From a candidate division WWE3 bacterium RIFCSPHIGHO2_01_FULL_42_13 (GTDB lineage: Bacteria; Patescibacteriota; WWE3; UBA101185; UBA10185): a stretch of 37,193 nucleotides of DNA. The notes under the pieces were generated by a model. The model saw only the letters and a program-made list of their open reading frames with translations, had not been told where the DNA came from and ran no database searches. Of the stretch, positions 3,795-34,186 are shown in pieces. The stretch lies in the NCBI GenBank assembly GCA_001772625.1, contig MEVA01000016.1, forward strand, positions 298 to 37,490, in the 5' to 3' direction. Position 1 is the first letter of the stretch. Each line of letters starts with the position of its first letter. The position numbers and the translations under genes are program-made.

Positions 3795-4973
3795 CTAATT
3801 ACCTCTTAAAAACGCAGGGATGTCGTACTTTCTATCGCCTTCTGGGTCAAAATCATCATCGCTAAGGCGTTCTTTCTTCTCTTCCTGTTGCGGAGCGTCC
3901 TTGCTACCGCCTGTAACTTCAATTTCAACTTCTTCTACACTTACTTCCACGTCTCGCATTTCCCGTACCTCTCTTCTTCTAGCACCTTCGGGCATACCTA
4001 ATTGCGACCTTATGTCTAACTCTGCACCAAATCCTGTAGCAATAACTGTAATTTTTATCTGATCGGTCATGTTGGCATCAATTGTGGTACCAAAAATAAT
4101 TTTGGCCTCCGGGCTTGCCGCCTCGTTAATAATTTTTGCCGCAGCATCTACTTCCTGCATGCTCATATCCAATCCACCAACAATGTTAAACAATATACCG
4201 GTTGCGCCTTCAATATCTACCTCAAGCAATGGCGAGGAAATTGCCGCTTTCGCAGCCGTAACTGCTCTGTTTTCTCCGGTACCAATACCAATGCCCATTA
4301 AAGCTGAGCCTGCGTTCTTCATAATTGTTCTTACATCCGCAAAGTCAACATTTATAAGTCCGGGCATAACTATCAAGTCTGAAATGCCCTGAACACCCTG
4401 GTGCAAAACACTGTCCGAGACTCTAAAGGCCTCAAGTACCGACATTTTTTCATCGGCTATTTCTAATAATTTTTCGTTTGGAATTGTTATAAGTGCGTCA
4501 ACTTCTTTTCTAAGAGCCGCGATCCCTACTTCCGCACTTTGCATTCTTTGGGCACCTTCAAAATGAAAAGGTTTGGTTACAACCCCAATTGTAAGCGCTC
4601 CCAAATCCTGAGCAATTTGGGCAATAATAGGAGAGGCACCTGTGCCCGTTCCACCACCCATGCCCGCGGTTATGAAAACCATGTCACTTCCTTCAAGGTT
4701 TGCTTTAATAATTTGAACAGATTCTTCCGCGGCTGTTCTACCAATTTCTGGATCAGCACCCGCCCCTAAACCTTTTGTTATTTCCTGACCAATTGGAAGT
4801 TTAATCGTGGCTTTATTTACAGAAAGCGCCTGAGCGTCTGTATTAATTGCGATAAACTCAACTCCTTGAATTTGTTGAGAATCAATCATTGTGTTAATGA
4901 CATTACATCCGGCTCCACCAACACCTACTACTCGAATTTTCGCAAATTTTTCTATTTCAGGTTTTACAAACAT
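3795..4973 (-). CDS. ftsZ: Cell division protein FtsZ
   Basis: [22 protein letters not shown] tubulin signature, NVDFADV T7 loop, C-terminal DIPAFLR peptide. Confidence 0.99.
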
Positions 4974-5029
4974 ATTTAAACACTACACTATAACTAGTAG
5001 TCCAATTATATATCTACATTACAAACTTT

Positions 5030-6283
5030 TTAGGGCAGGAAGGATTTTGCTTTCTCCAATAGTCTGGACAGGATGTTTCCAATCTTACCTCGTCCGGCTT
5101 CAAATGACAATAAGGAACCGCTTCTTATAAGCCTTGACCCATAAATTACTTCCCCTACTGTTGCGGCGAATGCCGGACCTTCTATCTCATCTATAAGACC
5201 TGTCACACCTTTTGGATAACCTATTCTCACGGGAGCCTTAAGGACATATTTGGCAATTCTCTCAATTCCAGAGGTTAAGGAAGCGCCTCCAGTAAGTATT
5301 AGCCCTGCTGGAAGCTTGCCCTGTAGATCAGCTTTCTTAATTTCTAAGGCTATAAGGCTGAAAATCTCGTTTAGACGCGCATCTATAATTCCATAGAGGA
5401 GTTTTTTTGGCACCTTCTCCATATCCAAGCCAAATCCCGAAACGTCTAAATCTTCGCTGTTCATATCCCTTTCCAAGGGGCTTAGGCTTTCTCTCTCCTC
5501 ACTTAGTTTTATTTTTATGCTTTCGGATGCCTCCATATGGGCACGCAGACCAATAGCAAGGTCACTTGTAATGTGTTTCCCTCCTATTGGAAGGACATCG
5601 GAGTAAACCGGACTTCCTTCGTGGAAAGCGATAACGGAAGTGGTTCCGCCGCCTACATCTACCAGCAGGCAGCCCAAATCCTTTTCCGTATCAGTTAAAA
5701 CTGCTTCAGCCGACGCTACACCTACGTAAACCATATCCTCAACCTCAACACCCACCTGTTCAACACACTTGGCCAAGTTTCTCATTGCTGTAGCCGAACC
5801 GTGAATGATGTTAGTTTCAACCTCAAGTCTTATACCCGACATCCCGATCGGATCTCTAATACCGTCCTGGCCATCAACCATAAAGTCCCGCGGGATCACA
5901 TGGATAATTTCCCGTGTGGAAGGCAAAGAAACAGCCTGTGCCGCCTCTGTAACCCTGGCTACGTCTTCATTTGTTATTTCCGCGCCTTGATGAGAAACTG
6001 CCACCACGCCGTGTGAATTTAGAGTTTCCAAATGGCTACCGTTTATTGTCACAAAAGCCGAGGAGACTGAAACGCCTGCCATTCTTTCAGCCCGTTCTAA
6101 ACTATTGGAAATTGCCTGGACAGCATCGTCTATATCTACGACATTGCCTTTCTTTATTCCTTGTGATGGGACATTTCCGCTAACTCCAATTACGGAGATT
6201 TTATTATCGGTAAGCGCGGCTATGATGGTGCTGATTTTCGAAGACCCTATATCTATTGCTGTTATGATTTTTTCTTTGGACAT
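5030..6283 (-). CDS. ftsA: Cell division protein FtsA
   Basis: DIGSSK, DVGGGTT, LTGG actin-fold motifs; C-terminal amphipathic helix; immediately upstream of ftsZ. Confidence 0.98.
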   Translation of the reverse strand: MSKEKIITAIDIGSSKISTIIAALTDNKISVIGVSGNVPSQGIKKGNVVDIDDAVQAISNSLERAERMAGVSVSSAFVTINGSHLETLNSHGVVAVSHQGAEITNEDVARVTEAAQAVSLPSTREIIHVIPRDFMVDGQDGIRDPIGMSGIRLEVETNIIHGSATAMRNLAKCVEQVGVEVEDMVYVGVASAEAVLTDTEKDLGCLLVDVGGGTTSVIAFHEGSPVYSDVLPIGGKHITSDLAIGLRAHMEASESIKIKLSEERESLSPLERDMNSEDLDVSGFGLDMEKVPKKLLYGIIDARLNEIFSLIALEIKKADLQGKLPAGLILTGGASLTSGIERIAKYVLKAPVRIGYPKGVTGLIDEIEGPAFAATVGEVIYGSRLIRSGSLLSFEAGRGKIGNILSRLLEKAKSFLP

Positions 6284-6295
6284 TCTGTTTAAAAT

Positions 6296-7051
6296 TTATC
6301 TATACGATACTATTACTTTATCATACCGTAAATCAACCCTCTTAACATCCCTGCCCTGTGTGGCAAGTTGCTTTAGTAACGCCGAAAGCAGAGAAGCCGC
6401 TTCGTAGACATTTCTTTCCCTACTTACCAAAACCTCTATGGAGTCCGGAATAAAAAGGGAAACGTAATCTGAATGCACACTCATGCTGGACGCGCTTATC
6501 TTTTCTACGTCCAAAGCCTGCAAAAGTCCAAAGTAGGCTGAAACTAGGTTTTCGTCCAAAAAGTATCCAACGGCGATTTGGCCTGAATATAAAATTTCCG
6601 GAAAGTTTGTGGTGCCAGGCTCAATTTGCCCCAAAACATAACCTTCCTCGTCCACCAGGTAAAAATTCTCCTTTTTCTCATCATACATAACTACGGCTGG
6701 AGTTCTTTCTATTACGGAAATTTTTAGGGTGGAAGGAAAACTCTTTCGTACAAAAATTTCTTTTGCTCCCTGGAAGCTCTCCAGTAAAGACGTCTCTAAC
6801 GCTCCGGAATTAAAAATTAAAATATTTTGTCCAAAGGCACGCGATTTAACCAACTCTGCTACATCAACTTGGCTGACGAAACTTTTTGTACCGGTAACCT
6901 CCACACTTTGAATTCTAAATGCTCCCCTCTCGATAAAAACAATGTAACCTGATAAAACTATGATCAATAAAACCAAGAATAAGGTTATATAAGAGGCAAG
7001 CCTAGCAAACTTTCTTCTAAATTTATTTTTTGACGATTGAGAGTACTTCAT
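6296..7051 (-). CDS. ftsQ: FtsQ/DivIB-type POTRA domain cell division protein
   Basis: Basic N-terminus, single TM, POTRA-like segment (VEVTG...RKSFPSTLKISVIER), LVDEEG, C-terminal VDLRY; position between murG and ftsA. Confidence 0.88.
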   Translation of the reverse strand: MKYSQSSKNKFRRKFARLASYITLFLVLLIIVLSGYIVFIERGAFRIQSVEVTGTKSFVSQVDVAELVKSRAFGQNILIFNSGALETSLLESFQGAKEIFVRKSFPSTLKISVIERTPAVVMYDEKKENFYLVDEEGYVLGQIEPGTTNFPEILYSGQIAVGYFLDENLVSAYFGLLQALDVEKISASSMSVHSDYVSLFIPDSIEVLVSRERNVYEAASLLSALLKQLATQGRDVKRVDLRYDKVIVSYR

Positions 7052-8120
7052 TTACAATCCGCTCCGCAGAATCTGAAATCATATTCTCTTTAATTTTTCT
7101 ATCTCTTAATTTCATTTGATCTAAGTTCTCCAAAGCAAGTTTTACGGTTGTGACTAAAGATTTAGGCGATAAGTCCTTTTGTTCAAGGATCCGGGCAAGC
7201 CCTGCTTTATAAAGTAAAGCTGCATTTTCGAACTGCTCATTATGTGAAACCGCAGGTAACGGAATTAAAATGGCCGGCTTTTCCAGTGCTAAAAGTTCAT
7301 AAATAGTGTGAGCCCCGGATCTCCCAACGACTAAATCTGTTTTTGCAAAAATTTCACCAATCTCATCTTCCATAACAAAACTCTTCAGATTATATTTCCC
7401 TGGTGCAGTTATAGCCTCTGACTTTTTCAGCAATTTCTGGTAGTCATTAAAGATTGAAGTGTCCCCGCACTGATGGATTACATTCGATACTGACAGCAGT
7501 TCGGATAAAACCTCCAGAACCGCTTTGTTTAAGGTATGCGAACCAGTCTTGCCGGCTGTTATATAAATTGTGGGGAGGTCTGGGTTCAAGTTTAGTTTAT
7601 TAGTTTCCTGTTCGAAAATTTCTTTCCTTAGGGGAAGGCCAACCGTTACAACATTCTTGCCCGGAAAATACTTTTTTGATTCTTCCCAGGTTACCAAAAC
7701 TTTTTTTGTAAACTTAGCCACAAATTTATTGGCATAGCCCGTTACCACAGTTTGTTCATGAGTAATTGACGGTATGCCAAGAAACCACCCGGCAAAAACC
7801 ACAGGTGCAGCAAGATACCCACCAAAAGATAGAATCACGTTGGGCCTAACCTTTTTTAAAAGATAGAGAGATTGAAAAAACCCAAACGGAATTTTTAACA
7901 AACGGATAATATTTGTTGTTCTATATAATTTTCCGGCTTTAAGGTCGTAGAAAGGAACTCCAAGCGCGGTAATTTCCCTATATTCCAAAGTTGGATTTTT
8001 ATCTCTTGCTATTGAATATTTATGGCCAAACCAGAAAATTTGAACTTCGGGGGTTTTTCTAAATTCTTTAATGACAGGGATTGCGCTTGTATGATGCCCT
8101 CCGGTTATTACTACTTTCAT
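7023..8120 (-). CDS. murG: MurG-family N-acetylglucosaminyltransferase (GT28)
   Basis: TGGH, FGGY, HEQ, RSGA and QxxNA motifs. Start moved to ATG 8120 (MKVVITGG) because a TTGCAC-18-CATAAT promoter occupies 8156-8127. Confidence 0.92.
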   Translation of the reverse strand: MKVVITGGHHTSAIPVIKEFRKTPEVQIFWFGHKYSIARDKNPTLEYREITALGVPFYDLKAGKLYRTTNIIRLLKIPFGFFQSLYLLKKVRPNVILSFGGYLAAPVVFAGWFLGIPSITHEQTVVTGYANKFVAKFTKKVLVTWEESKKYFPGKNVVTVGLPLRKEIFEQETNKLNLNPDLPTIYITAGKTGSHTLNKAVLEVLSELLSVSNVIHQCGDTSIFNDYQKLLKKSEAITAPGKYNLKSFVMEDEIGEIFAKTDLVVGRSGAHTIYELLALEKPAILIPLPAVSHNEQFENAALLYKAGLARILEQKDLSPKSLVTTVKLALENLDQMKLRDRKIKENMISDSAERIVNEVLSIVKK

Positions 8121-8156
8121 GTGGACATTATGCCCACCTACCTCGCGGCTGTGCAA
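8121..8156 (-). promoter_or_regulatory. Sigma70-type promoter, probably leaderless, for murG
   Basis: TTGCAC (8156-8151), 18 nt, CATAAT (8132-8127), 6 nt, ATG. Confidence 0.55.
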
Positions 8157-8174
8157 CTAGGCATCCCTCTCATA

Positions 8175-9371
8175 TTAGGAATTTCGCGCGGAAATGTTAG
8201 CCAGCAAACCTAAACCCATTAAGCTAAAAACCAATGAGGATCCGCCGTACGAAACCAAAGGTAACGGCACGCCCGTTAGAGGAATTAGTCTGGTCATTGC
8301 GGCTACGTTCACAAAAAATTGAACGGCGATCCAGGTTGTGATTCCAGTTGCTAAAAGCCTGCCTAATAATGTTGTGGAATCTTTGGCCAGCATAAATCCT
8401 TTATAAATAAAAAAACTAAAAATTAAAATAAAAACCGCGGTACCAATAAAACCAAATTCTTCGCCAATGATCGCAAAAATTGAATCCGCGGCAACCTCAG
8501 GTAAGTACTGAAACTTTTGCCGGGATTGCCCAAAACCTAATCCCCACAACCCACCGGATCCTAAAGCAATTTGAATTTGTCTTATGTGATAACCCAAAGA
8601 TAAATCACCTGACTCTGCGGGATTTAAAAATGTTAAAAGTCTGGCCCGCCTGTAATCGGACGAAAGAATGAAACCAACCCCGGCAAGAAACAGCGGTGGC
8701 AGTAGAGCTACTAGCGGCGCTAAACTCGCCCCCGACACAAAATACATAGAAAGGCCTATTATAAAAAGGAGCGCCGCCGTGGACATGTTAGGCTGCATCA
8801 AAACCAACACCGATGTTAGCCCCACTACAATAATAAAAACCCAAAAGGGCTTTTCTTTGTTGCGCACAAATTTATCTAAAAGCACTCCTAAATAAATGAC
8901 GAGGGCAAGTTTCGCAAACTCACTGGGCTGAAAGCCCAAAACACCTAACAATGGAATTTGTGGTAAGGGCGGAGGATTAACATAAAGCCATCTATGAGCG
9001 CCATTTACGCATGGCGCAAAAATAAGGCCACCGGAACCACAGCCCGAAAAAAGGTTGGCCAAAGATAATACAACTAATGAAAGGAGGGCAATTCCAAATA
9101 GAGACAGGGAGATTCTTCTTAAAGTATCAAAATCTAATTTGAAGAAAAAGTAAAATCCTAACAAACCAATACCAAGCCATCCCACCTGCAACAAGGCAAA
9201 TCTATACGCTCCACCAAAAGCACCTTGCGAATAGACTCCGGTAGCGTTGTATATCATAACAACCCCAAAAACCAGTAGTGCAATCAGAAGAATCAGAAAA
9301 GACCTGTCTATATCTTTGATGCCATATCCAGCTTTATAAGAACTTTCCCTAGTTTTTTTTCTTGGAGACAT
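8175..9371 (-). CDS. ftsW: SEDS family glycosyltransferase FtsW
   Basis: Multi-TM; NGAHRW, FQPSEFAK, GSGGLWGLG, LPEVAADSIF, GVPLPLVSYGGSS; dcw context. Confidence 0.95.
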   Translation of the reverse strand: MSPRKKTRESSYKAGYGIKDIDRSFLILLIALLVFGVVMIYNATGVYSQGAFGGAYRFALLQVGWLGIGLLGFYFFFKLDFDTLRRISLSLFGIALLSLVVLSLANLFSGCGSGGLIFAPCVNGAHRWLYVNPPPLPQIPLLGVLGFQPSEFAKLALVIYLGVLLDKFVRNKEKPFWVFIIVVGLTSVLVLMQPNMSTAALLFIIGLSMYFVSGASLAPLVALLPPLFLAGVGFILSSDYRRARLLTFLNPAESGDLSLGYHIRQIQIALGSGGLWGLGFGQSRQKFQYLPEVAADSIFAIIGEEFGFIGTAVFILIFSFFIYKGFMLAKDSTTLLGRLLATGITTWIAVQFFVNVAAMTRLIPLTGVPLPLVSYGGSSLVFSLMGLGLLANISARNS

Positions 9372-9375
9372 AGAT

Positions 9376-10461
9376 TTACAACAGAGCTACCAATAATCCC
9401 AAAAAGGCAAATAAAGCTCCCACCAGCCAGAATCGCAGAGTCACCTTGGTTTCATGCCAGCCTAAAAGTTCAAAATGGTGGTGTACAGGTGCCATTCTGA
9501 ATAATCTCTTTTTCGTCAGGGCATACGAAAGCTGTTGTAACGGGCTGGAAATACCATCTAACAAGAAAACTATGGCGACAAGCAAAACCGCCACCTCTCT
9601 ATGCATAACTACACCTAAAACGGCAATTGTTGCCCCCAACACGTGTGAGCCCACGTTGCCCATAAAAATTCGCGCGGGGTTCACGTTAAAATATAAAAAT
9701 GGCAACAAGGCGCCTACAAAGGTCGCGCTAAAGAGTGCAAGTTCATTGTAATTTAGTTCGCTAGCCATAACCCACAGGGCAATGAAGGCTATTAATCCCA
9801 ACCCGCCTGCCAACCCATCCAAACCATCGGTAAAGGCAACGGAATTCAAAACCACTATAAACATGAGGAAAATTACCACGGGATATAACCACCCGATGTG
9901 AACATCGCCCAACAATGGAAACCAAATATAATCCCATCCCAATTTAAAATAAGTCCAGTATGAAACAAAACCGCCGATTAGAGACTGAATTAAAATCTTC
10001 TGGTAAGTTTTCATGCCTGACTCGTCAGAACTTCCAACTATTCGCCAAAATTCTTTAAATCCCCTCCAGGGTGTAAGCAGTGCTTGAATCATAAATCTTA
10101 AAGGCGCTATCAAAAAAATCTTTCCCAACCATACATTTCTAAAATAAAATCTAAAACCGGTTGTTTTATATATTTTTCCGAAATCTTCCATGATTCCAAA
10201 AAACCCGGCCATACATGCCACAAGGACGGGGAAAAGTGTTTGGGTTCTGGAACGGTTAAAAAGAAGTGTGATCACAGAGACGATTAGGATAAAAACCAGG
10301 CCACCCATTGTTGGGGTTCCGAGCTTTTTCAAATGGGATTTCGGTCCATTACCGCGGACTTCCTCACCCATGTGATATTTATAAACGAAATTAATCCAAA
10401 GCGGATAAAGTAAACCTGTTAAAACTACTGCTAAAAGTAAATAAAGGAGCTGCGCGTGCAT
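9376..10461 (-). CDS. mraY: MraY-family polyprenyl-phosphate transferase (atypical active site)
   Basis: GPKSHLKKLGTPTMGG, TDGLDGL, NPARIFMG and APVHHHFE motifs. The canonical DD and MGD motifs read ED and MGN. Confidence 0.9.
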   Translation of the reverse strand: MHAQLLYLLLAVVLTGLLYPLWINFVYKYHMGEEVRGNGPKSHLKKLGTPTMGGLVFILIVSVITLLFNRSRTQTLFPVLVACMAGFFGIMEDFGKIYKTTGFRFYFRNVWLGKIFLIAPLRFMIQALLTPWRGFKEFWRIVGSSDESGMKTYQKILIQSLIGGFVSYWTYFKLGWDYIWFPLLGDVHIGWLYPVVIFLMFIVVLNSVAFTDGLDGLAGGLGLIAFIALWVMASELNYNELALFSATFVGALLPFLYFNVNPARIFMGNVGSHVLGATIAVLGVVMHREVAVLLVAIVFLLDGISSPLQQLSYALTKKRLFRMAPVHHHFELLGWHETKVTLRFWLVGALFAFLGLLVALL

Positions 10462-10480
10462 ACTAAGTTTTAGTATATCA

Positions 10481-11809
10481 CTATTCTACGGCTGAAATGT
10501 TGGCCCCAAGGCTTGCGAGCTTGGATATAAAGTCTTCGTAACCGCGGGTTACATTTTCGAACCCTACAATCTCACTTTTACCCTCGGCGGCAAGGGCGGC
10601 TATAACTAAAGTCGCACCGGCACGCAAATCAGGCACATAAAGTTTTGTGCCGTGCAAAGGAGTCTTTCCGGTTATTTTAGCTACGCTTTTTGGTTCCCCA
10701 AGTTTTTCGAGATCATATGTATCGTCATTAACTTGTACTTCCAAACCTGATTCTTGAGGCGTGGTTAAATTTATTTTCGCACCCATTCTATTTAGATCCA
10801 CTGTGTAGCCAAATCGATCCCAGTAAATTGTGTCGTGGACAGTGCTTTCCCCGGAAACTTGCGTGAGAAGCAGCGTGATTAGGGGTTGCCAGTCGGTCAT
10901 GAAACCTGGGGCTGGCGCTGTTGTTATATCAACCGGTAGCAAATCCTCTCCAGATCTCCAAATTCTCATTTCATCGTCATTAATTTCAAACTTAGCCTCC
11001 ATTTTGGTTAAAACGTTCACAAACGAAAGTAAATGCGCGCGGTTAACACCTTTTATTGTCATGTTTCCGTTTGTAACAAGCGCAGCAACAGCGTAAGTTA
11101 CAACCTCATTCCTATCCGGCTGAACTGTAAAAGAAGCGCCGTTAAATTGCTTGCTGCCTGTAACTTTTATTCTTGTTGATTCCAATCTTTCTACTTTGCC
11201 GCCAAGAAGGTTTATAAACTCTATTAAATCATCAACTTCTGGTTCTTGAGCAGCGTTGTTTATTATTGTCTCTCCGTTTGCAAAGGCGGAAAAAAGAATA
11301 GCCATATCTGTTCCCATGTGTGTATTTCTCTGGAAATTAATATTGCTTCCAGACAAGGTCTGAGCGTCCAGGTAAATGAACTTTTCATCGTTTTTAACAC
11401 TTATGCCAAGCGCTTCCCACACACCAACCCACCTGTTAATAGGCCGCGGGCCAATTTTGCAACCGCCTGGAAACGGGACCACAGCCTTGCCAAATCTAAA
11501 AACTAATGGCGCGGCGTATAAAGGGGCTGTTCTATTTTTGCTACCAAGTTCATACGGGATTTCAAAAGTGTTGACGCCCGACCCATTTATCAAAAGCTTA
11601 TTTGTACCTAACCATTCAACCTTTCCTCCCAAAAGCTTTACAATTTCAAGGTCTGCGTCCAAGTTTTCTATTCTGGGAACATTATCAAAAACAACATCTT
11701 CGTTGCATAAAAGTGCAGCTGGGATTAATTTCAAAATAGAATTTTTCGAGCCGGAAGTTCTTACAGTTCCTACAAGAGGGTTGCCACCTTCAACTAAAAC
11801 GTTTGACAT
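10481..11809 (-). CDS. murA: UDP-N-acetylglucosamine 1-carboxyvinyltransferase
   Basis: GSKN, PGGCKIGPRP (catalytic Cys loop), PGFMTDWQ, DLRAG, RGYE. Confidence 0.96.
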   Translation of the reverse strand: MSNVLVEGGNPLVGTVRTSGSKNSILKLIPAALLCNEDVVFDNVPRIENLDADLEIVKLLGGKVEWLGTNKLLINGSGVNTFEIPYELGSKNRTAPLYAAPLVFRFGKAVVPFPGGCKIGPRPINRWVGVWEALGISVKNDEKFIYLDAQTLSGSNINFQRNTHMGTDMAILFSAFANGETIINNAAQEPEVDDLIEFINLLGGKVERLESTRIKVTGSKQFNGASFTVQPDRNEVVTYAVAALVTNGNMTIKGVNRAHLLSFVNVLTKMEAKFEINDDEMRIWRSGEDLLPVDITTAPAPGFMTDWQPLITLLLTQVSGESTVHDTIYWDRFGYTVDLNRMGAKINLTTPQESGLEVQVNDDTYDLEKLGEPKSVAKITGKTPLHGTKLYVPDLRAGATLVIAALAAEGKSEIVGFENVTRGYEDFISKLASLGANISAVE

Positions 11810-12039: not shown

Positions 12040-12450
12040 TTATCTTTTTTCACACAACCACTCAAAGAAGTGGTAAACAAAACTTAAAACAAACGCTGAA
12101 GCTGCGGCGGACTCAACCACCGAAAGCAGCCTTGATGGTAACACAAAGCCGAAAATTCTCAACTCGGGAAGCGTTGTTTCCACAATACTCAAATCCGTAA
12201 TAAAGATCGTCAGAATATACAGAACAGTAAGTGTGAGTAGGAAGTTTAAAAGTATAAAACCTAAGCCCATGTGTGGAAGAGACAGGATTCTAAGAATCGG
12301 GATTATGAACAGATTTAAGAGAACTAAAGCAACAAGAAGTAGGATCATGTTTTGTTCGGGATTCGCACCAAAGTCAATTCCACTAACAAGTCTTTGAGCT
12401 ATTTGAATAGAGGCGTACGAAATAAGAACTGAGCGTAAGATTAATCTCAT
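12040..12450 (-). CDS. YvlD-like / 'phage holin family' four-TM membrane protein
   Basis: Four hydrophobic segments with LNLFIIPILRILSLP, matching the N-x3-P-x6-LP pattern of this family; lies between uvrC and secG. Confidence 0.7.
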   Translation of the reverse strand: MRLILRSVLISYASIQIAQRLVSGIDFGANPEQNMILLLVALVLLNLFIIPILRILSLPHMGLGFILLNFLLTLTVLYILTIFITDLSIVETTLPELRIFGFVLPSRLLSVVESAAASAFVLSFVYHFFEWLCEKR

Positions 12451-12457
12451 GCATTAA

Positions 12458-13807
12458 TTATAACCCGCTACCTATCTTTCTCAACCTAAGCTGCATATGG
12501 TATTTTTTGGCAAACCTGTGCGCCTCATCCCTTAGTCTCTGCAAAAGCTTTAAACCTGCATTATCTTTTGACAGTGAAACTTCCGATAACCCGGACAAAA
12601 CTATAGTCTCAAGCCTTTTTGCCAGTCCGATAATGGGAATTGAGAGTCCAAGTTTCTGCAAAACCTCAACCGCTGCTGAAACCTGCCCCTTTCCACCATC
12701 TATCACAATTAAATCTGGCGTTCCCCACTTCTTCATATTTTTACTTTCAAGCTTCTCCCGCGCAAACCTTCGCCTTAAGACTTCTCGGATCATTTCAAAA
12801 TCATCTGGTGTTTCCTTAAACTTAATTCTAAATTTTCGGTATTCACTTTTATCAATACGCCCATCGGTTGCCACAACCATAGAACCCGTCGCGTCTTTTC
12901 CAAACAGATTTGAAATATCGTAACATTCAATCCTTGACGGGAGTCTTTTTAATTCAGGAATATTTGCAACCAACTCATCTAACGCTTGTGAAACTAAATC
13001 TTCAATTAAATAAGGGTTATCCATGTACTCTTCCGGATCTCTAAAGTTGCGGGTTATATAGTTTATTTTTGAAAGAAGATCCCGCTTTTGAGCCGCCTCC
13101 TCATATTTCATCTCTTTAGAAAGTTTTCTCATTTCTTTTTCCAGCGAACCTAGAAGTCTTGGACTTTCACCTTCTAAAAGTCTTTGGAGTTGTTTTATTT
13201 GAGCCTTATATTCATCAACGGAAACAGCATTGGTACAAGGCGCAGGACAAAGACCAACATGTCCATAAAAACACGGCGAGCCAAGACCCTGGTACCTTTG
13301 AAACTTGGAGGTAGAACAGTCTCTAAACGGAAACATTCGACGAAGAGTCCGTAGCAAATACTTTGCAACGGTTCCGTGAGCGTACGGGCCGTAGATTTTA
13401 TCATTAGGTTTTAGTTCAGTTGCACGCGCTGTAATCACTACTGGAAGTTTTACCGGTTTTCCATTAATCTTTACTTCCTCGTTTCGAATAACAATATGAA
13501 GCGAAGATTTGTCATCTTTTAAAGCGACGTTATATTTCGGATTGTGTTTTTTAATAAGAGAAGCTTCAAGAATTAATGCTTCAAGTTCCGTTTCAACTTC
13601 GATAGTATCCAGATCCACAATTTGTCTAACAAGAGCTGCAGTTTTTGAACTTGTGTCAATTGCTATAACAAAATAGGATTTAACCCTGTCATACAATCTT
13701 ATCGCTTTACCAACATAAATAACCTTCCCACTTTCATTTTTGAACATATAAATGCCTGGGCGTTTGGGGAGATTATTTACTTTTTGTAGAAGTTTGTTTG
13801 GAGACAC
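12458..13807 (-). CDS. uvrC: Excinuclease ABC subunit C, short form without C-terminal HhH domain
   Basis: GIY-YIG (PGIY...IYVGKA), four-Cys region, UVR motif, RNase H-like domain (IECYDIS, PDLIVIDGGKGQ, RDEAHRFA). GTG start. Confidence 0.93.
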   Translation of the reverse strand: MSPNKLLQKVNNLPKRPGIYMFKNESGKVIYVGKAIRLYDRVKSYFVIAIDTSSKTAALVRQIVDLDTIEVETELEALILEASLIKKHNPKYNVALKDDKSSLHIVIRNEEVKINGKPVKLPVVITARATELKPNDKIYGPYAHGTVAKYLLRTLRRMFPFRDCSTSKFQRYQGLGSPCFYGHVGLCPAPCTNAVSVDEYKAQIKQLQRLLEGESPRLLGSLEKEMRKLSKEMKYEEAAQKRDLLSKINYITRNFRDPEEYMDNPYLIEDLVSQALDELVANIPELKRLPSRIECYDISNLFGKDATGSMVVATDGRIDKSEYRKFRIKFKETPDDFEMIREVLRRRFAREKLESKNMKKWGTPDLIVIDGGKGQVSAAVEVLQKLGLSIPIIGLAKRLETIVLSGLSEVSLSKDNAGLKLLQRLRDEAHRFAKKYHMQLRLRKIGSGL

Positions 13808-14334: not shown

Positions 14335-16233
14335 ATGCCTAGAATACTAAAGTCGTTAACCTTAGCCACTTTTCTGATTATTACCTCTCTTTTGCTACCC
14401 CCCGCTTTGGCAGACGAGCTATTCGACACAGAATTCAATGTCGTCTACAACATCGCCCCAACCGGTGAAGCTAGCATTGTTCAAAACATAAAAATTACCA
14501 ACAAACAGGATGACGTGGTTGCGACAAATTATTCGCTAACCATAAAAGACATGAACATTTACGATGCGGCAGGAACTGATGATGAAGGTGAACTAAAACT
14601 TGAAACATCAAAAGACGTAAACACAACTACACTTAAAACAGAATTCAATGAACAAGTAATTGGAGCCGACAGAAGTTACGAATGGCAACTTAAATACAAG
14701 TCTGGAGATATTGCCACTAAAGTTGGCGAAGTTTGGAACGTACATATACCACAAGTTGAGGTTTTGGATTTAACTAAGGATTACAACGTAACGCTAGTGG
14801 TTCCAAAGGAATTTGGACCGGAAATTTTTATTTCGCCCCTACCAACAAAAGCAACTGATGAAGGTGCCTCAATAACCTATTTTTTTGATAAAAAAACCCT
14901 GGCCGAAAAAGGAATAACCGCGTCTTTCGGAAATTTTCAGACTCTAAACTTTCAACTCAAATATAACCTGTCCAACGAATCGGCTTTTACTTCATACCAG
15001 GAAATTGCTCTGCCACCGGATATTACTAATACACAGCAAGTTTTGTATAAATCATTGGAACCTAAACCCTACAGTTTTCATACAGATGATGACGGAAACC
15101 TAATTGCGACATATAAACTTGGCGGGCATGATGAGGTAGAGGTTATCCTCACCGGCTCTGCAAGAATTGCTGGCAAACAGATAAATCCGTTTTTTGGGGG
15201 AAGTTTGAGCGAAATACCGGGGGAGTTGAAGCGCAAGTACACCGGCGCGGAGAAATATTGGGAAGTAGACGCACCTATGATAAAGGATCTTGCCAGTTCA
15301 CTTAAAGATACAGGATTAACGACATCTCAAAACGCACAAAGGGTTTACGAATATGTAACTCAAAATCTCAAATACGATTTTGATATTGTAAATAAGTCTT
15401 TTGTCGATAGAAACGGCGCGTTAAACGCATTAACAAACCCCGGTCCATGGGCGTGCATGGAATTTACCGACTCATTTATTGCAATTACGCGTGCAATGGG
15501 GATTCCCGCCCGGGAATTAAATGGTTATGCTTTTGCCCAGGAAAGTAACCTCACTCCCCTATCAATAAATTTAAAAGGCGGGGACTTACTTCACTCGTGG
15601 GCGGAATTTTATGATCCTAATTTTGGTTGGGTGCAGGTTGATCCAACATGGGGAAATACTTCGGGGATTGATTACTTTACAAAACTAGACACAAACCACT
15701 TCGTATTTAGCATAAAGGGCACAAGTTCTGAATACCCGTTTCCTGCGGGCGCGTATAAAGTAACAGGAAACGAAAAGCAGGTTGAAGTGGATTTTGCCCA
15801 AAACCCAGAAGAAATAAACTTTAATGAGAATATAAAAGTTTACGAAGAAGCAAATCCAAGCCTTATACTAAAACTGCTTAGCCGCTTTAGGGAATTAAAA
15901 ACGTACACCATCTACAATCAGGATGGAATAAAACTTTACAACCTCAACCGAAAAAGACAAATCTTGCAACCCTTCTCTACTGCAACCGTTCAGCTTCCAA
16001 AAGACTCTAACGAATTGTATTTTGAAGATTTTACCGGAAAAGGAAAGGTTTTAAGTTTCGCGGTTTCGCAAGGCGAGCCGCCAGAAACGCCTAAACCAGT
16101 TTTTTCTCTTTTTGGAGTTGCTGCCTTAGCACTTCTGCTGTGTACGATGATTTATTGGCTGGCAATTCATCCCGAGGCCCTGAAAAAAGTATCTCGCCGC
16201 CTGCCTCACCGCCCTCAGGCCCAAGGTCAATAA
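14335..16233 (+). CDS. Secreted/membrane-anchored transglutaminase-like domain protein
   Basis: Signal peptide (ALA-D); Cys-His-Asp triad motifs ACMEF, HSWAEF, VDPTW; RAMGIPAR; C-terminal TM helix. Confidence 0.88.
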   Translation: MPRILKSLTLATFLIITSLLLPPALADELFDTEFNVVYNIAPTGEASIVQNIKITNKQDDVVATNYSLTIKDMNIYDAAGTDDEGELKLETSKDVNTTTLKTEFNEQVIGADRSYEWQLKYKSGDIATKVGEVWNVHIPQVEVLDLTKDYNVTLVVPKEFGPEIFISPLPTKATDEGASITYFFDKKTLAEKGITASFGNFQTLNFQLKYNLSNESAFTSYQEIALPPDITNTQQVLYKSLEPKPYSFHTDDDGNLIATYKLGGHDEVEVILTGSARIAGKQINPFFGGSLSEIPGELKRKYTGAEKYWEVDAPMIKDLASSLKDTGLTTSQNAQRVYEYVTQNLKYDFDIVNKSFVDRNGALNALTNPGPWACMEFTDSFIAITRAMGIPARELNGYAFAQESNLTPLSINLKGGDLLHSWAEFYDPNFGWVQVDPTWGNTSGIDYFTKLDTNHFVFSIKGTSSEYPFPAGAYKVTGNEKQVEVDFAQNPEEINFNENIKVYEEANPSLILKLLSRFRELKTYTIYNQDGIKLYNLNRKRQILQPFSTATVQLPKDSNELYFEDFTGKGKVLSFAVSQGEPPETPKPVFSLFGVAALALLLCTMIYWLAIHPEALKKVSRRLPHRPQAQGQ

Positions 16234-19078
16234 CCCAATCACAGTTTGCTATCACATCAATGTTATGTTCTATTACCAAAACAGTGTTTCCACGGGAAGT
16301 AAGACGTTTAATTATCGTAATAAGTCTTTCTAAATCAGCAAAATGAAGTCCAGTTGTAGGTTCGTCCAAAATATATAAGGTTCTACCTTTCATTTTCTTT
16401 GAAAGTTCGGTTGCAAGTTTTACTCTTTGAGCCTCACCACCAGAAAGTGTTGGCGCAGGTTGTCCAAGCTGAATGTAACCTAAACCTACATCATTTAAAG
16501 TTTTTATTTTTCTACGGATGGCCGGAACATTTTCAAAAAACTGTAAGCCCTCTTCAACAGTCATGTCTAAAACTTCGCTAATGTTTTTATCCTTGTAGGT
16601 TACCTCCAAAGTTTCGCGGTTGTATCTTTTACCTCTACAAACTTCGCAGTTAACATAAACATCTGGCATAAACTGCATTTCAATTTTAATTTGGCCCTCG
16701 CCATCGCACGCTTCACAACGCCCACCCTTAACATTAAAGCTAAACCTTCCGGGGCTGTAACCGCGGATTCTTGCCGCTTCAGTTTTAGCAAAAAGGGTGC
16801 GGATATAATCAAAGGTTTTGGTGTAAGTGGCGGGGTTGGATTTAGGTGTTCTGCCAATTGGGGATTGATCTATTGCAATTACCTTATCGACATGTTCGGT
16901 GCCTTCTATTGATTTGAAAGGTTCGGCTCTTTCATAAATCTTTAAACCAAAATCTTGTCTTAAAGCCGTATATAAAGTATCCATAACTAAAGACGACTTT
17001 CCCGAACCCGAAACTCCGGTAACACAAACGAATTTTCCAAGCGGCACTTCAAAATTAATATTCTTTAAATTTCTTCCGGTTGCGCCTTTTAGTTTCAAAA
17101 ACTCGCCGTTATAAACTCTTTTTTCTTCGTCCTCATCAATAGCTTCAATGTGCTTCATAACTTGCTTGCCAACTTTCTTCTTTCCGGATAAGTACTGGCC
17201 GGTTAGAGAGTTTTTATCTTTCATTATTTCTGCAGGCGTGCCCTGAGCCACAACTTTTCCTCCGTGTGCACCAGCTCCAGGCCCAAAATCCACAATATGA
17301 TCGCTTTCCATCATAGTCTCGGTATCGTGCTCAACTACCAAAACCGTATTTCCCAGATCTCTTAAGTTTTTCAAGGTTTTAATCAAACGTCCCTGATCCT
17401 TTTGATGAAGCCCAATTGAAGGTTCGTCCAAAACATACAAAACTCCGGATAACCCCGAGCCAATTTGCGAGGCGAGTCTAATTCTTTGAGCCTCACCACC
17501 AGATAAATCTCCAGCAGCTCTACTTAAAGTTAAGTAACTTAATCCCACGTCAACCAAAAACTTAATCCTATACATAATTTCTTTCATAATTGGCGTTGCA
17601 ATGGTTTGTTCACGTTCCGAGCTTTTTTCATGAAGTTCCCCGCACCACTTAGCTAAAATATCCACGGACATTTCAGCAATCTCAAATATACTTTTTCCAT
17701 CTATAACCACACCCATCGCCGTGTCATTCAAACGTGAACCTAAACACTTGGGACACGGTTCCTTAACCATATACTTTTCAATTTCACGTCTTATAAAATC
17801 GGAATTGGTCTCTTTATGTCTGCGGATTAAATTTGGGACAATTCCTTCAAAACGCGCGTGGAAAACATTTCTTTGTCCATCCTTAACATACTCAACTTTA
17901 AACCTTTCATCGGTTGGGGTTCCGTAAAAAAGAATTCTGCGTGAAGCTTTATCAAGTTCGCCAATTGGAGTTTTTAAAGAAAAGCCGTAGGTCTTAGAAA
18001 CAGCTTCCACAACCCTTGCCGTCCATGAGTACGAGTCAAAAAGGCTTGACCACGGGAAAACCCCGCCCTCTTTAATACTTAGCCGCGGATTTACTACCAA
18101 GTCTTCCTCGATGTTTAGCTGCGTCCCCAAACCATCACAAACTAAACAGGCTCCGTGAGGCGAGTTAAACGAAAACATTCTAGGTTCCAAGTCCGGTAAA
18201 GAAATTCCACAGTGCGGACAAGCAAAATTTTCCGAAAACATCTGGTCTTCAAACTTTTTGGGTTTGGAATCTGCGGTAAAATCAAAATCTTTATCTTTAA
18301 CAATTGTTAAAACAACATAACCACTACTAAGTTTTAACGCAGTTTCTACAGTTTGATGAAGCAAACTGTGCAAAGCTTTTTCCTCCCCTGCCTCCTTAAG
18401 TTTTTTGTGGGTTACTATTTGACGGGAAAGAATAGCTTCAATTGTATGTTTGTTGGTTTTTATAAGCTCCAGGTGATCACTTAAGTCGTAGATTTGACCG
18501 TCAATACGGGCTCTAACGATACTCTGCTTTTGAAGGTTTTCAAAAAGCGCAGAATACTCTCCCTTTCGATCTCTAATCACCGGAGACAAAATCATTAAGC
18601 GAACTCCCCGCGCTGTTTTAAACTCCGGCTGCTCATGAATAGTTTTTAAAATATTATCAACAATTTGTTGTGAACTTTGTCTGCTAATCTCACGCCCACA
18701 CTGCGGACAATGAGGGTGACCAATTCGCGCGTATAAAAGTCGCAAGAAATCGTAAACTTCGGTAACAGTTCCAACGGTTGAGCGTGGATTATTGGAAGTA
18801 GTTTTTTGATCAATAGCAATTGCGGGGGAAAGTCCTTCAATACTATCAACATCAGGCTTGTCCATTACTCCTAAAAACTGCCGCGCGTAAGCGGAAAGGC
18901 TTTCAACATATCTGCGCTGGCCTTCGGCATAAATTGTATCCATCGCAAGAGACGATTTTCCCGAACCGGAAACGCCAGTAAATACCACGAACTTATTTTT
19001 GGGAATTTTCAAATCAATGTTCTTTAAGTTGTGCTGACGGGCACCACGGACTGTAATTGTATCTTGAGGGTTTGGCAT
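16091..19078 (-). CDS. uvrA: Excinuclease ABC subunit A
   Basis: GARQHNLK, two GVSGSGKSS Walker A motifs, two LSGGEAQR signatures, zinc-finger Cys pairs. Confidence 0.99.
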
Positions 19079-19138: not shown

Positions 19139-19187
19139 CGTCTTTATCCTATAAGCTATGTGCGGAAAACCGCAGAAGGAGAGACCA

Positions 19188-20327
19188 GTGGCAAATTCAA
19201 ACTTGCTTACCCTCACTGCTATTAAGGCAGATGTTGGAAGCAGAGGAGGGCACACCCAACCTTCAGAAGAAATGGTTGCGGTGTGTGAGGAAGAAATGCA
19301 CAATGCAGTTGGCGAGACACTCTTGGACTGTCGTGTGACAACTACAGGCGATGATATTTGCATGTTGATGTCGCATCTTCCGGAGAACGGCCCAAGCGTA
19401 AATGATCTTGCATGGAAAGCGTTGGATCGGGCCGGGGACATTGCAAAAACGCAAGGTCTCTATGGAGCAAAGCAAGACTTGCTCACAAGCGCGCCATCTG
19501 GAAATGTCCGAGGGGCAGGGCCTGGTGTCGCTTCAATCACCTTCGCCACAGACGCCCCGGAACGCCCAGCCGAAACATTCATGGTGGTGACAGCCGACAA
19601 GTGTGGGCCAGGCATTTTCAACTTCCTGTTCGGAAAGGTTTTCACCGATCCCGACATGGCTGCCGGCTTGATGTTACCAAATATGCTTGATGGGTTCACT
19701 TTCACCATGATTGATATGGAGCATGTTGAACCAGGAAAGAATGTTGACAGGGTAATCAGGCTCGACGGTGGGAAGGAACTTCCCAAACTGAAGTTGCTAC
19801 TTCGTGGAGAAGATGAGTATGGGATTTTAGCGATCCACTCCAACCGATACCCGCACCAACAGGTGGCATCGACATCCACCGACAGACTCCATTCGATTGC
19901 CGGTGTCTACAAGGGTAAGGATGATCCCGTAGGGCTCGTTCGCACACAAGGCATCTTCCCTGCACCAGAAGAGCTTATGTCACCCTTTACGGTAGCGCCA
20001 TATGTTGCGGGTGACGCGCGTGGCAGCCATAACATGCCTCTCATGCCTGTGCCTATCAACACAGCCGTAACTGGGGTGTACTGCTTGCCGATCGTGTCGG
20101 CGATGGCGTACTCCATTACGCCAGAGGGGATGTTTTCTGAGGGCGTAGACATGTTTGACAACCCAGCTTGGGACAGCACTCGTAAAAAGGCCCAGCTAAA
20201 AGCTATGCTGATGCGCGAACAAGGATCCTTCGGATGTGCCATGCTACCTTACAGCCAGCTTGAATATGCTGCCTACAGGAAAGTTATGGAGGATCTTAAT
20301 GAAAGGTTTGTAACTGAGAGTCGTTAA
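19188..20327 (+). CDS. fbp: Fructose-1,6-bisphosphate aldolase/phosphatase (FBPase class V)
   Basis: IKADVGS..GH, GDD, QGLYGAKQDLL, GNVRGAGP, ADK.GPG, YKGKDDP (Tyr and Schiff-base Lys), RGSH..PLMPV. Start placed at GTG 19188 behind AAGGAG. Confidence 0.93.
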   Translation: MANSNLLTLTAIKADVGSRGGHTQPSEEMVAVCEEEMHNAVGETLLDCRVTTTGDDICMLMSHLPENGPSVNDLAWKALDRAGDIAKTQGLYGAKQDLLTSAPSGNVRGAGPGVASITFATDAPERPAETFMVVTADKCGPGIFNFLFGKVFTDPDMAAGLMLPNMLDGFTFTMIDMEHVEPGKNVDRVIRLDGGKELPKLKLLLRGEDEYGILAIHSNRYPHQQVASTSTDRLHSIAGVYKGKDDPVGLVRTQGIFPAPEELMSPFTVAPYVAGDARGSHNMPLMPVPINTAVTGVYCLPIVSAMAYSITPEGMFSEGVDMFDNPAWDSTRKKAQLKAMLMREQGSFGCAMLPYSQLEYAAYRKVMEDLNERFVTESR

Positions 20328-20344
20328 AAATCAGTGCAAAACTA

Positions 20345-20395
20345 TGGCACTCGTGCCAAAGGGCAGTTCATTCTTTGAACTGTCCTTAGTTTTTT
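20345..20395 (+). terminator. Tandem hairpins/terminator between convergent fbp and ROK genes
   Basis: TGGCAC-tc-GTGCCA, then GGGCAGTTCA-ttctt-TGAACTGTCC followed by a T-rich run. Confidence 0.7.
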
Positions 20396-22861: not shown

Positions 22862-22884
22862 AAAGTTCACCCCCAATCAAAGAA

Positions 22885-27379: not shown

Positions 27380-27457
27380 TGATTTATTGTAACATCAAAA
27401 CCTCTTGACATCTTCGGTAAAAGTTCGCTAATATGAATATACCGAAAGAAACACAAA
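27380..27457. promoter_or_regulatory. Divergent uvrB/lexA promoter region with candidate LexA operators
   Basis: lexA: TTGACA (27405-27410), 18 nt, TAATAT (27429-27434), with TTCGG-taaaag-TTCGC in the spacer and a weaker inverted copy at 27442-27457. uvrB: TGtTACAAT 6 nt before GTG. Confidence 0.72.
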
Positions 27458-34165: not shown

Positions 34166-34186
34166 TATAGTTTTTTTCTTCCTACC

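Follow-up and report, generated by a model that had tools for sequence, protein, structure and literature searches.

A compact late-stage peptidoglycan and cell division gene cluster in a genome in which the muramyl-peptide precursor enzymes were not found

Background

The window analyzed here, a stretch of 37,193 nucleotides, carries murA, mraY, ftsW, murG, ftsQ, ftsA and ftsZ in tight succession, and it raises the question of what a bacterium can build with the late steps of cell wall synthesis if the enzymes that produce the peptide-bearing precursor are encoded nowhere in its genome. A reading made from the sequence alone (the sequence-only reading) had proposed that, if MurB, MurC-F and Ddl are absent genome-wide, the cluster may either build a lipid-linked glycan that has no peptide, with enolpyruvyl-UDP-GlcNAc as one possible starting material, or use host-derived precursors.

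Genomes and searches

The genome that contains the window (G000) comprises 641,607 bp in 17 contigs and is 87% complete; its relatives suggest that the lineage belongs to the Microgenomatia (CPR), and it is that of a very small, probably host-dependent bacterium. Gene content was compared across a class sample of 92 genomes, made up of 91 genomes of at least 90% completeness and G000 itself, with smaller samples for the transpeptidase and MurJ (31 genomes), the MurA catalytic loop (39 genomes) and several other families (5 genomes). G001 belongs to the same genus as G000, and G008 is the sole family member with a full mur set; G008, G022 and G024 are the full-pathway genomes with which MraY was compared. 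Absences were determined with profiles after a permissive first filter, and very divergent or non-homologous replacements would escape such searches; the control search for MurB gave a match in 10 of 10 bacterial control genomes.

Cluster organization and missing enzymes

The seven genes share the minus strand, and the tight spacing described in the sequence-only reading was reproduced together with the coordinates. The UDP-GlcNAc enolpyruvyl transferase gene murA (10481-11809; TIGR01072, 405 bits against a cut-off of 392.7) is followed after 19 nt by mraY, which encodes the phospho-MurNAc-pentapeptide translocase (9376-10461; TIGR00445, 230 bits against a cut-off of 192), and this after 4 nt by ftsW, which encodes the SEDS glycan polymerase (8175-9371; PF01098, 300 bits; TIGR02614, 285 bits). 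A further 18 nt separate ftsW from murG (7023-8156), the gene for the GlcNAc transferase that converts lipid I to lipid II, and murG overlaps by 29 nt with ftsQ (6296-7051; POTRA_1 and FtsQ_DivIB_C domains), beyond which lie ftsA (5030-6283; TIGR01174, 377 bits) and ftsZ (3795-4973; TIGR00065, 420 bits). MurG has both the N and C domains of Glyco_transf_28; its score of 207 bits against TIGR01133 is below the cut-off of 250, as is that of the MurG of full-pathway G008 (176 bits), and alignment to solved MurG shows its GGH, HEQ, RxGAxTxxE and QxxNA motifs. Directly upstream of murA, on the same strand, is a gene for a small 4-TM protein (12040-12450) with a weak PF04020 match (23.6 bits against a cut-off of 28.8), a homologue of which precedes murA in 17 of the 20 genomes examined from the family and the order. 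Between G000 and the same-genus genome, at a dS of about 0.86, dN/dS is 0.026 for murA, 0.035 for mraY, 0.043 for ftsW and 0.055 for murG, and these four genes are under strong purifying selection; the value for the small 4-TM protein is 0.046.

This compact gene order is the norm within the taxonomic order of G000. The relative order of MraY, FtsW, MurG, FtsQ, FtsA and FtsZ is that of the canonical dcw cluster and lipid II pathway of E. coli and B. subtilis, with which MurJ and class A PBPs are also shared; the locus differs from it in having no MurB-F or Ddl, in the position of murA directly upstream of mraY, and in being split in two, with a separate mraZ-rsmH-(small ORF)-ftsI block on the same contig at a distance of about 30 kb. 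The genes murD, murE, murC and murF are indeed absent from the cluster, but the slots from which the sequence-only reading took them to be missing were the E. coli ones; in G008, murD-murE-murC-murF all sit between ftsW and murG.

The claim that the stem-peptide enzymes are missing genome-wide held in profile searches of G000, where a search for a full murB/murC-F/ddl set outside the cluster found none; of the precursor pathway MurA, MraY and MurG are present, while MurB, MurC-F, Ddl and the racemases were not detected. The MurB profile (TIGR00179) gave neither a match nor a candidate in G000, and the same genome had no match to Mur_ligase_C or Dala_Dala_lig_C (PF07478, Ddl) and no ATP-grasp candidate (PF07478, PF13535). 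Its one Mur_ligase_M match is a MurT-like gene truncated by the beginning of contig C3, so that its first 165 residues are left. Among five genomes including G000, FAD_binding_4, Ala_racemase_N and the GlmU equivalog had no match, Asp_Glu_race was found only in G008, and UppS was found in one genome other than G000. The sole nucleotidyltransferase of G000 (NTP_transferase, PF00483) is ManC-like, resembling mannose-1-P guanylyltransferase, and no AmgK-type APH kinase (PF01636) was found in G000 or G001. The pattern of GlmU, UppS and the nucleotidyltransferase suggests a wider dependence on outside supply.

Loss across the lineage

An assembly or binning artefact, with the missing genes hidden in the 13% of the genome that was not assembled, has very little probability. 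Such an artefact is consistent with the 87% completeness and with a murT cut by a contig end, the C-terminus of MurT, GatD, Wzy_C and a binding protein all being missing from the assembly, but the assembly does cover the ftsW-murG junction and the syntenic MurE slot, and neither contains them. This slot, which in G001 holds MurE and lies between GDSL and M23 genes, is occupied on contig C9 of G000 by the gene for a 674-aa membrane protein, and no MurE remnant was found there. Profile searches of G001 likewise found no MurB, MurC, MurD, MurF or Ddl. The relatives bore out the absence on a larger scale: in the class sample MurB occurs in 28 of 92 genomes and Mur_ligase_C in 39, while 45 have neither, the single-contig genomes G018, G091 and G034 among them, and at the family level neither is found in 35 of 60. 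Because nearly half of the class genomes share the absence, and three of these are single-contig, it is a loss in the lineage and not an assembly gap.

MraY is present in 89 and a MurA homologue in 86 of the 92 class genomes, and the 45 genomes without MurB and Mur_ligase_C retain MraY in 43 cases and a MurA homologue in 41; a MurA homologue occurs without MurB in 58 of the 92. The precursor pathway has decayed piecemeal, with remnants that differ between relatives (MurE only in G001; MurE and MurB in G013; MurF only in G003 and G009; Ddl, MurF and MurB in G010), and the remnant mur genes resemble each other as they would under vertical inheritance. Two published accounts describe the peptidoglycan pathways of CPR bacteria as essentially complete, or as complete when taken as a whole (PMC7143001, PMC12114108), and a review goes no further than to report a complete pathway in some of them (PMC13293708). 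The picture from these 92 genomes of a CPR class differs, in that about half have neither MurB nor C-domain Mur ligases and nearly all have MraY.

Retained enzymes and the state of MurA

The MraY of G000 aligns with solved MraY structures and has the TDGLDGL and HHH motifs. Its usual D-D pair is E-D, and the Asp of FMGD, the third Asp, is N; work on E. coli and B. subtilis has these Asp residues as essential. There is nevertheless no sign of an altered substrate, because the same variants occur in the full-pathway genomes G008, G022 and G024.

The PBP transpeptidases, FemX-like proteins, MurJ and MurT/GatD, all of which act on or need the stem peptide, are retained. A transpeptidase domain occurs in 31 of 31 genomes, and G000 has three PBPs (two class A and one FtsI-like) with intact SxxK, SxN and KTG motifs. 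MurJ is found in 30 of 31 genomes, G000 included, the FemAB family (FemX-like) in 5 of 5, with two genes in G000, and L,D-transpeptidases in 3 of 5. MurT_C is present in 18 of 18 family relatives; the N-terminus that alone was assembled in G000 is 88% identical to the G001 MurT over 165 residues. In G001 and G018, which have the full MurT/GatD pair, the ATP site of MurT (GTNGKTTT), the DGRD motif of its C-domain and the GatD Cys/His are intact, as in the pairs of S. aureus and S. pneumoniae (PDB 6gs2, 6fqb), although the family pair scores about 150-180 bits against NCBIfam equivalog cut-offs of 400-800 and the middle region of the family MurT is shorter by about 50 residues. The operon dnaA-murT-gatD-Wzy_C-SBP is conserved, and was dropped as a candidate precursor uptake route because it is equally frequent in full-pathway genomes.

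The MurA of G000 has the K22-N23, PGGC (Cys117) loop, TD, DLRAGA and RGY motifs and is on this basis predicted to be catalytically intact. In 27 of 39 genomes examined, however, the MurA next to MraY is without its catalytic loop, and the same is true of 26 of the 34 MurB-less genomes examined, in which the RGY arginine is lost too. Since the loop has been lost while the gene remains full-length, syntenic and under purifying selection, the loop-less MurA of the relatives appears to be a pseudoenzyme, predicted to be catalytically dead; the G000 protein, which has lost neither the Cys loop nor the RGY arginine, is of the intact type. With the loop gone in 26 of 34 MurB-less relatives, the compact cluster is evidently independent of the production of enolpyruvyl-UDP-GlcNAc, and because MurA is dead yet conserved in most relatives, its retained role is probably other than catalysis. 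The counterpoint is that G000 MurA keeps all of its catalytic motifs, under purifying selection, though no MurB follows it; we know of no use for the MurA product without MurB.

It is conceivable, though distinctly unlikely, that the MurA-like protein invariably encoded directly upstream of MraY acts as a non-catalytic partner of the translocase, taking or passing a pirated host precursor such as UDP-MurNAc-pentapeptide, in a module dedicated to wall-precursor piracy in the Microgenomatia of which G000 would represent an intermediate stage, with MurA still an enzyme. What is observed is the pattern of loss, a MurA that stays conserved though dead in relatives, and the close linkage of murA to mraY; under this idea the protein would also have to bind and capture the precursor.

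Possible sources of the precursor

The explanation to which we give somewhat better than an even chance is a wall assembly line that is restricted to the late stages and fed with a muramyl-peptide precursor supplied from outside. The cluster would represent the late stages, at the division site, of an ordinary peptidoglycan pathway whose cytoplasmic steps leading to UDP-MurNAc-pentapeptide (MurB, MurC-F, Ddl and the racemases) the lineage has lost. Because the assembly machinery is kept while the enzymes for the peptide-bearing precursor are lost, the building block would most likely come from the host, ready-made and probably as a soluble nucleotide precursor from the host cytoplasm. MraY would place it on the polyprenyl phosphate carrier, MurG would then add GlcNAc, the FemX-like enzymes and MurT/GatD would modify the stem peptide, and MurJ would flip the product over the membrane, where FtsW with the FtsI-like PBP and the two class A PBPs would polymerize and cross-link it at the division ring of FtsZ, FtsA and FtsQ. 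The analysis identified neither a transporter nor any other route by which a muramyl-peptide precursor could be taken up; to our knowledge uptake of UDP-MurNAc-pentapeptide has not been demonstrated in any bacterium, and a literature search on it found nothing relevant.

The two options of the sequence-only reading thus fare differently, the host-derived precursor becoming the favoured one. A peptide-less glycan is suggested by the adjacency of murA and mraY with no MurB or ligases and by the substituted Asp residues of MraY, but these substitutions are shared with full-pathway genomes, MurA is dead in most relatives with the same compact cluster, and peptide-dependent enzymes (three intact transpeptidase PBPs, two FemX-like genes, MurJ, and MurT/GatD, of which G000 shows the MurT N-terminus) are kept; this option is very improbable. 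A lineage that makes no wall and carries the late-stage genes as vestiges, as the missing precursor pathway might imply, is scarcely credible given dN/dS values of 0.03-0.06 on murA, mraY, ftsW and murG, largely intact catalytic motifs, and the near-universal presence of MraY and PBPs.

Salvage of wall fragments, in which muropeptides or free stem peptides shed from the peptidoglycan of the host or the environment would be imported, re-activated by unrecognized enzymes and fed to MraY, would produce the same pattern of gene loss, and it gains from the M23-like peptidase and GDSL hydrolase at the former MurE locus, from the carbohydrate-type binding protein within the murT operon and from the L,D-transpeptidases. 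It is nonetheless unlikely: G000 and G001 have no AmgK-type kinase, the only NTP_transferase of G000 is ManC-like, no Mpl-like or other Mur ligase was found that could re-attach peptides, and the binding-protein operon is not specific to the genomes with the loss. Moreover, D,D-transpeptidases need pentapeptide donors, and mature wall fragments are mostly without the pentapeptide. Replacement of MurB and the four Mur ligases by a non-homologous cytoplasmic route, with the intact MurA supplying its first intermediate, would account for the selection on murA in G000 and for the many class genomes with MurA and no MurB, and these genomes contain many genes without an assigned family; it is highly doubtful, as a genome of about 0.64 Mb would have to encode five or more new enzymes, G000 has no ATP-grasp or FAD_binding_4 candidates, and loss of the MurA loop and RGY arginine leaves no enolpyruvyl-transfer route in most of the MurB-less genomes examined.

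Comparison with known systems

Dependence on an external muramic-acid compound, as proposed here for the late-stage assembly line, is shared with Tannerella forsythia, a MurNAc auxotroph that has MurC-F but neither MurA nor MurB, and with the AmgK/MurU bypass; G000 keeps MurA, has no MurB-F, and yielded neither an AmgK-type kinase nor a MurU-like transferase. In the nested symbiosis of mealybugs, a mosaic peptidoglycan pathway operates intracellularly with the missing Mur enzymes encoded by the host. Supply of cytoplasmic Mur steps by a partner would be common to both cases, but G000 is presumed to be epibiotic and is missing everything that follows MurA in the cytoplasmic branch. Among obligate intracellular bacteria whose peptidoglycan gene sets are reduced, the genes for lipid II synthesis are generally kept and the losses fall on synthases. 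G000 is their mirror image, having lost precursor synthesis and retained the translocase, flippase, polymerases and transpeptidases; host association and partial machinery are the points of likeness. A review of such bacteria describes Wolbachia as needing lipid II (PMC5814848).

The first cultivated member of the Microgenomatia, the class to which the G000 lineage is assigned, is strain OT8, which offers context for a host-derived precursor: it lives as an obligate ectoparasite on a Chloroflexota host, whose cytoplasmic material it appears to reach; the accessible portion of the preprint concerns RNA uptake and does not mention Mur genes (10.64898/2026.06.21.733656). Because a co-culture has been reported, the ideas of a host-derived precursor and of a MurA pseudoenzyme are now testable. 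A literature search found no description of the late-stage-only loss pattern or of a conserved dead MurA, and the predicted pseudoenzyme beside mraY in 27 of 39 genomes is new here; it would be a new bacterial pseudoenzyme, probably with a structural or regulatory role in wall synthesis. If the precursor is host-derived, epibiotic bacteria would have a metabolic dependence of a new kind, which would be one reason for their resistance to pure culture and, as far as we know, the first case of uptake of a late peptidoglycan precursor.

Neighbouring envelope genes

Most of the envelope genes that the sequence-only reading had placed near the cluster were recovered, and nothing was found to tie the GT-C, DedA or transglutaminase-like genes to the cluster as a single system. 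The class A PBP (22885-25230, minus strand), a glycosyltransferase and D,D-transpeptidase, matches Transgly with 215 bits and Transpeptidase with 100 bits and has the motifs EDxxFxxHxG at 213, RKxxE at 265, S485xxK, S543xN and K673TG. The LysM protein (22481-22876) remains a sub-threshold candidate at 16.8 bits against a cut-off of 20.9. Domain matches were obtained for the DedA/VTT protein (28089-28763), the two PMT_2 GT-C proteins (29489-31387 and 31386-32936) and the transglutaminase-like protein (14335-16233).

Gene content and arrangement of the cluster

Positions 11809 to 3795 of the minus strand are taken up by a head-to-tail series of seven genes, murA, mraY, ftsW, murG, ftsQ, ftsA and ftsZ. 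In order from murA they are spaced by gaps of 19, 4 and 18 nt, an overlap of 29 nt, and gaps of 12 and 56 nt, and all seven identities are supported by both Pfam and NCBIfam, so that the tight packing reported in the sequence-only reading is borne out by coordinates, spacings and profile matches. MurA (405 bits) and MraY (230 bits) score above their equivalog cut-offs, while MurG (207 bits) and FtsW (285 bits) score below theirs; the MurG of a relative with the full Mur pathway scores lower still, at 176 bits, and the MurG motifs are intact in the genome that carries the window (G000). Purifying selection on the cluster genes is strong when G000 is compared with G001, a genome of the same genus, the dN/dS values being 0.026 for MurA, 0.035 for MraY, 0.043 for FtsW and 0.055 for MurG.

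The complete compact order is found in 15 of the 20 family and order genomes with fetched loci, the remaining five comprising two loci cut by contig ends, two rearranged loci, and that of G008, which has a ligase insertion. The second half of the split dcw cluster lies about 30 kb further on the same contig and consists of mraZ, rsmH, a small ORF and an FtsI-like class B PBP, after which comes a divergently oriented LytR-CpsA-Psr gene. Directly upstream of murA is a gene for a small 4-TM protein (12040-12450, minus strand; weak PF04020 match, 23.6 bits), which occupies this position in 17 of the 20 family and order genomes examined and is under purifying selection (dN/dS 0.046); uvrC is also upstream of the cluster, and a B12-dependent ribonucleotide reductase is downstream.

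Absence of the stem-peptide enzymes

The window occupies positions 298-37490 of contig C16 in the G000 assembly, which comprises 641,607 bp in 17 contigs (87% complete, 42% GC). Every absence reported here is the outcome of profile searches run on six-frame translations after a permissive initial filter. Genome-wide, MurB (TIGR00179) produced no matches and no candidates in G000, and no matches were obtained in that genome for Mur_ligase_C, the D-Ala-D-Ala ligase C domain (Ddl-type ATP-grasp), ATP-grasp_4, FAD_binding_4, alanine racemase or Asp/Glu racemase. The empty MurB, Mur_ligase_C and D-Ala-D-Ala ligase searches support for G000 the genome-wide absence of the stem-peptide enzymes on which the earlier suggestion depends, and no alternative ligase or reductase was found by the Ddl-type ATP-grasp, ATP-grasp_4 and FAD_binding_4 searches. 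The sole Mur_ligase_M match is to a MurT-like gene truncated by the start of contig C3, of which the N-terminal 165 residues are assembled; this fragment is 88% identical to the MurT of G001.

A gap in the assembly is argued against by two places at which the sequence is assembled and ligases are missing. A bona fide MurE (435 bits) is encoded in G001, flanked by a GDSL hydrolase and by an M23-like gene. The same flanks are assembled on contig C9 of G000, where the slot contains no MurE remnant and is occupied by a gene for a membrane protein of 674 aa that matches no NCBIfam family (G000:C9:25896-27920, in fetched locus L191:897-2921, minus strand). In G008, the sole family member with the full set, murD-murE-murC-murF stand between ftsW and murG; in G000 this junction is the assembled one of 18 nt. 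Tandem pairs of genes for weakly matching Ddl-like ATP-grasp proteins of about 340-390 aa were observed in G004, G005, G006, G009, G011, G020 and G021, most of which have no Mur ligases; no such tandem paralogues were found in G000-G003.

Distribution of the loss among related genomes

In a sample of 31 genomes (G000, 18 from the same family, 3 from the same order and 9 from the same class), MraY and a transpeptidase domain are present in all 31 and MurJ and MurA in 30 each, while MurB is present in only 10 (four of the 18 from the family and none of the 3 from the sister family). A survey of the class Microgenomatia covered 92 genomes, 91 of them at least 90% complete together with G000, which as related genomes are non-independent observations. 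With thresholds of E <= 1e-25 for MraY and E <= 1e-20 for MurA, it detected MraY in 89 of the 92, MurA in 86, Mur_ligase_C in 39 and MurB in 28. MraY went undetected in three genomes, all of them assemblies fragmented into 80 to 100 contigs. Neither MurB nor Mur_ligase_C was found in 45 of the 92 genomes (35 of the 60 family members and 10 of the 32 others), among which are the single-contig genomes G018, G091 and G034; MraY is present in 43 of these 45 and a MurA homologue in 41. MurB together with at least three ligase C-domains occurs in only 9 of the 92.

The ligases that are left over vary by lineage: MurE alone remains in G001, MurE and MurB in G013, MurF alone in G003 and G009, and Ddl, a MurF paralogue and MurB in G010, while G026, from another family, also retains MurE. 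The mutual resemblance of these remnants fits vertical inheritance. The pattern is the signature of a pathway for which the need has ceased altogether and which many lineages are losing independently of one another.

The product of the remaining pathway

The sequence-only reading had proposed that the cluster might build a peptide-less lipid-linked glycan. That product is not borne out, since PBPs, FemAB, MurJ and MurT are retained and MraY gives no sign of a new substrate. G000 encodes three PBPs, namely the FtsI-like protein and two class A proteins, one encoded in the window and the other on contig C6; all three carry the SxxK, SxN and KTG motifs and both class A proteins the GT51 motifs. 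It also has two FemAB-family genes in tandem, known relatives of which add amino acids to the stem peptide, and a MurJ (258 bits). All 18 family relatives have MurT_C, and a comparison of G001 with the solved S. aureus structures indicates that the Cys and His of GatD, the ATP-binding site of MurT and the DGRD motif are all kept, the MurT of G001 being about 50 residues shorter in the middle. The PBPs, FemAB, MurJ and MurT/GatD of these genomes all act on the stem peptide, which argues against a product that has none.

In MraY (9376-10461, minus strand) E-D replaces the customary D-D pair, and the Asp of FMGD is replaced by N. A change of substrate as the meaning of these variants was rejected, because they are identical in the full-pathway genome G008 and equally present in the full-pathway genomes G022 and G024; the class contains three or more subtypes of MraY motif, and that of G000 occurs in full-pathway genomes as well. 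A second GT4 polyprenyl-phosphate sugar-phosphate transferase, a WecA/MraY-like protein of 494 aa, adjoins a decaprenyl-phosphate phosphoribosyltransferase-like gene of the UbiA family (235 bits) at G000:C2:1014-3461 (L192:15-2462, minus strand), a pair which hints at another lipid-linked glycan pathway.

The source of the precursor

We propose that, of peptidoglycan synthesis, the cell would carry out only the steps at the membrane and in the periplasm, and that the muramyl-peptide precursor, which the cell would not make, would be supplied from outside in a form, from a source and by a transporter that we infer. The GlmU equivalog was found in 0 of 5 genomes and UppS in 1 of 5, which was not G000, and G000 yielded no uridylyltransferase candidate; these results point to wholesale import of activated building blocks. 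Access to the UDP-MurNAc-pentapeptide pool of a host cytoplasm is plausible.

No transporter for a muramyl-peptide precursor was identified. One candidate, the carbohydrate-type binding protein downstream of murT-gatD-Wzy_C, belongs to an operon, dnaA-murT-gatD-Wzy_C (O-antigen-ligase-like)-SBP_bac_1, which is conserved in 14 of the 15 family loci examined, that of G002 being cut by a contig end. Copies in relatives are at L009, L007 and L155-L169, and the G000 copy (G000:C3:3-497, L001, minus strand) ends at the contig end after 165 codons of murT. The candidate was rejected as a muropeptide importer, because full-pathway genomes (G008, G025 and G030) carry the operon too, so that it is not linked to the loss. 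Salvage through AmgK/MurU was rejected, neither being found in G000.

Intact and degenerate forms of MurA

A MurA homologue is present without MurB in 58 of the 92 class genomes. When the MraY-adjacent (or sole) homologues of 39 genomes were aligned, the PGGC catalytic loop was found to be intact in 12 and missing in 27 (the degenerate form), G009 being one of the 27 and keeping a Cys in an EGC loop. Among the five MurB-positive genomes of this set MurA is intact in four, and the fifth, G010, has a second, intact MurA adjoining MurB; among the 34 MurB-less genomes 26 are degenerate and 8 intact (G000, G001, G053, G061, G054, G077, G043 and G033). This alignment largely accounts for the retention of MurA in the absence of MurB. 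In alignment A1, which has 36 rows, none of the 25 degenerate ones keeps the glycine or the cysteine of the loop or the C-terminal RGY arginine, residues which we take from work on E. coli MurA to be catalytic; 63 other positions are conserved in both groups.

The degenerate form is, judged from its sequence, an old and conserved pseudoenzyme, because its genes are of full length (about 440 codons) and at the expected locus, often with a short overlap of a few nucleotides with mraY, because protein identity within one genus is 86-91% with synonymous sites saturated, and because 15 degenerate sequences, drawn from many genera, are united in a single clade of a maximum-likelihood tree (support 97/97), on which the intact/degenerate label changes about 3 times (bootstrap range 1 to 3). 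Examples are found at L104:11574-12899 (G018), L118:9877-11205 (G012) and L123:9141-10505 (G016). The prediction made for a MurA-MraY complex (score 0.00, mark 0.32) gives no answer and counts neither for nor against binding.

The MurA of G000 is intact and falls among other intact sequences; it may be read as an intermediate stage. The closest relatives of this MurA carry titles such as Levyibacteriota, Gottesmanbacteria, Roizmanbacteria and "Patescibacteria group", and on this ground we treat the organism as belonging to the class Microgenomatia (CPR). A second MurA paralogue (about 27% identical; G004, G007, G009, G010, G016 and G017) was considered and has no conserved neighbour except MurB in G010. 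In G004 the MraY-adjacent homologue is split into ORFs of 266 and 180 aa (L111, G004:C6, about 34404-35668) and is possibly a pseudogene; another MurA copy is present elsewhere in that genome.

Comparison with known systems

Tannerella is without MurA and MurB and keeps the ligases. Partial peptidoglycan pathways are known in host-dependent bacteria, the familiar ones generally keeping precursor synthesis and losing the synthases (PMC5814848); the pattern in Microgenomatia is the mirror image, with precursor synthesis lost and the late stage kept in about half of the class. Two papers describe CPR pathways as essentially complete, or complete in aggregate (PMC7143001, PMC12114108), and one review refers to a complete pathway "in some" CPR (PMC13293708). 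Literature searches found no published account of the loss of MurB-F with MraY, MurG and PBPs kept in Microgenomatia (gene tables in the supplements of the OT8 preprint and of large CPR surveys may bear on this novelty), none of a MurA pseudoenzyme, the matches being mostly to an author name, and none of uptake of UDP-MurNAc-pentapeptide.

Other genes in the window

The envelope genes previously assigned to the surroundings of the cluster are present, with the exception of LysM, for which there is a sub-threshold match only. Interleaved with envelope genes are uvrC (12458-13807), uvrA (16091-19078), uvrB (25304-27379) and lexA (27433-28086). The true start of uvrA is probably further in than that of the listed ORF, because the latter shares about 140 nt with the end of the transglutaminase-like gene. 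The region 19158-21884, beside the class A PBP, encodes a fructose-1,6-bisphosphatase of class V, a sugar kinase of the ROK family and a 6-phosphogluconolactonase/NagB-like protein, and enolase and pyruvate phosphate dikinase are encoded at 32939-36466.
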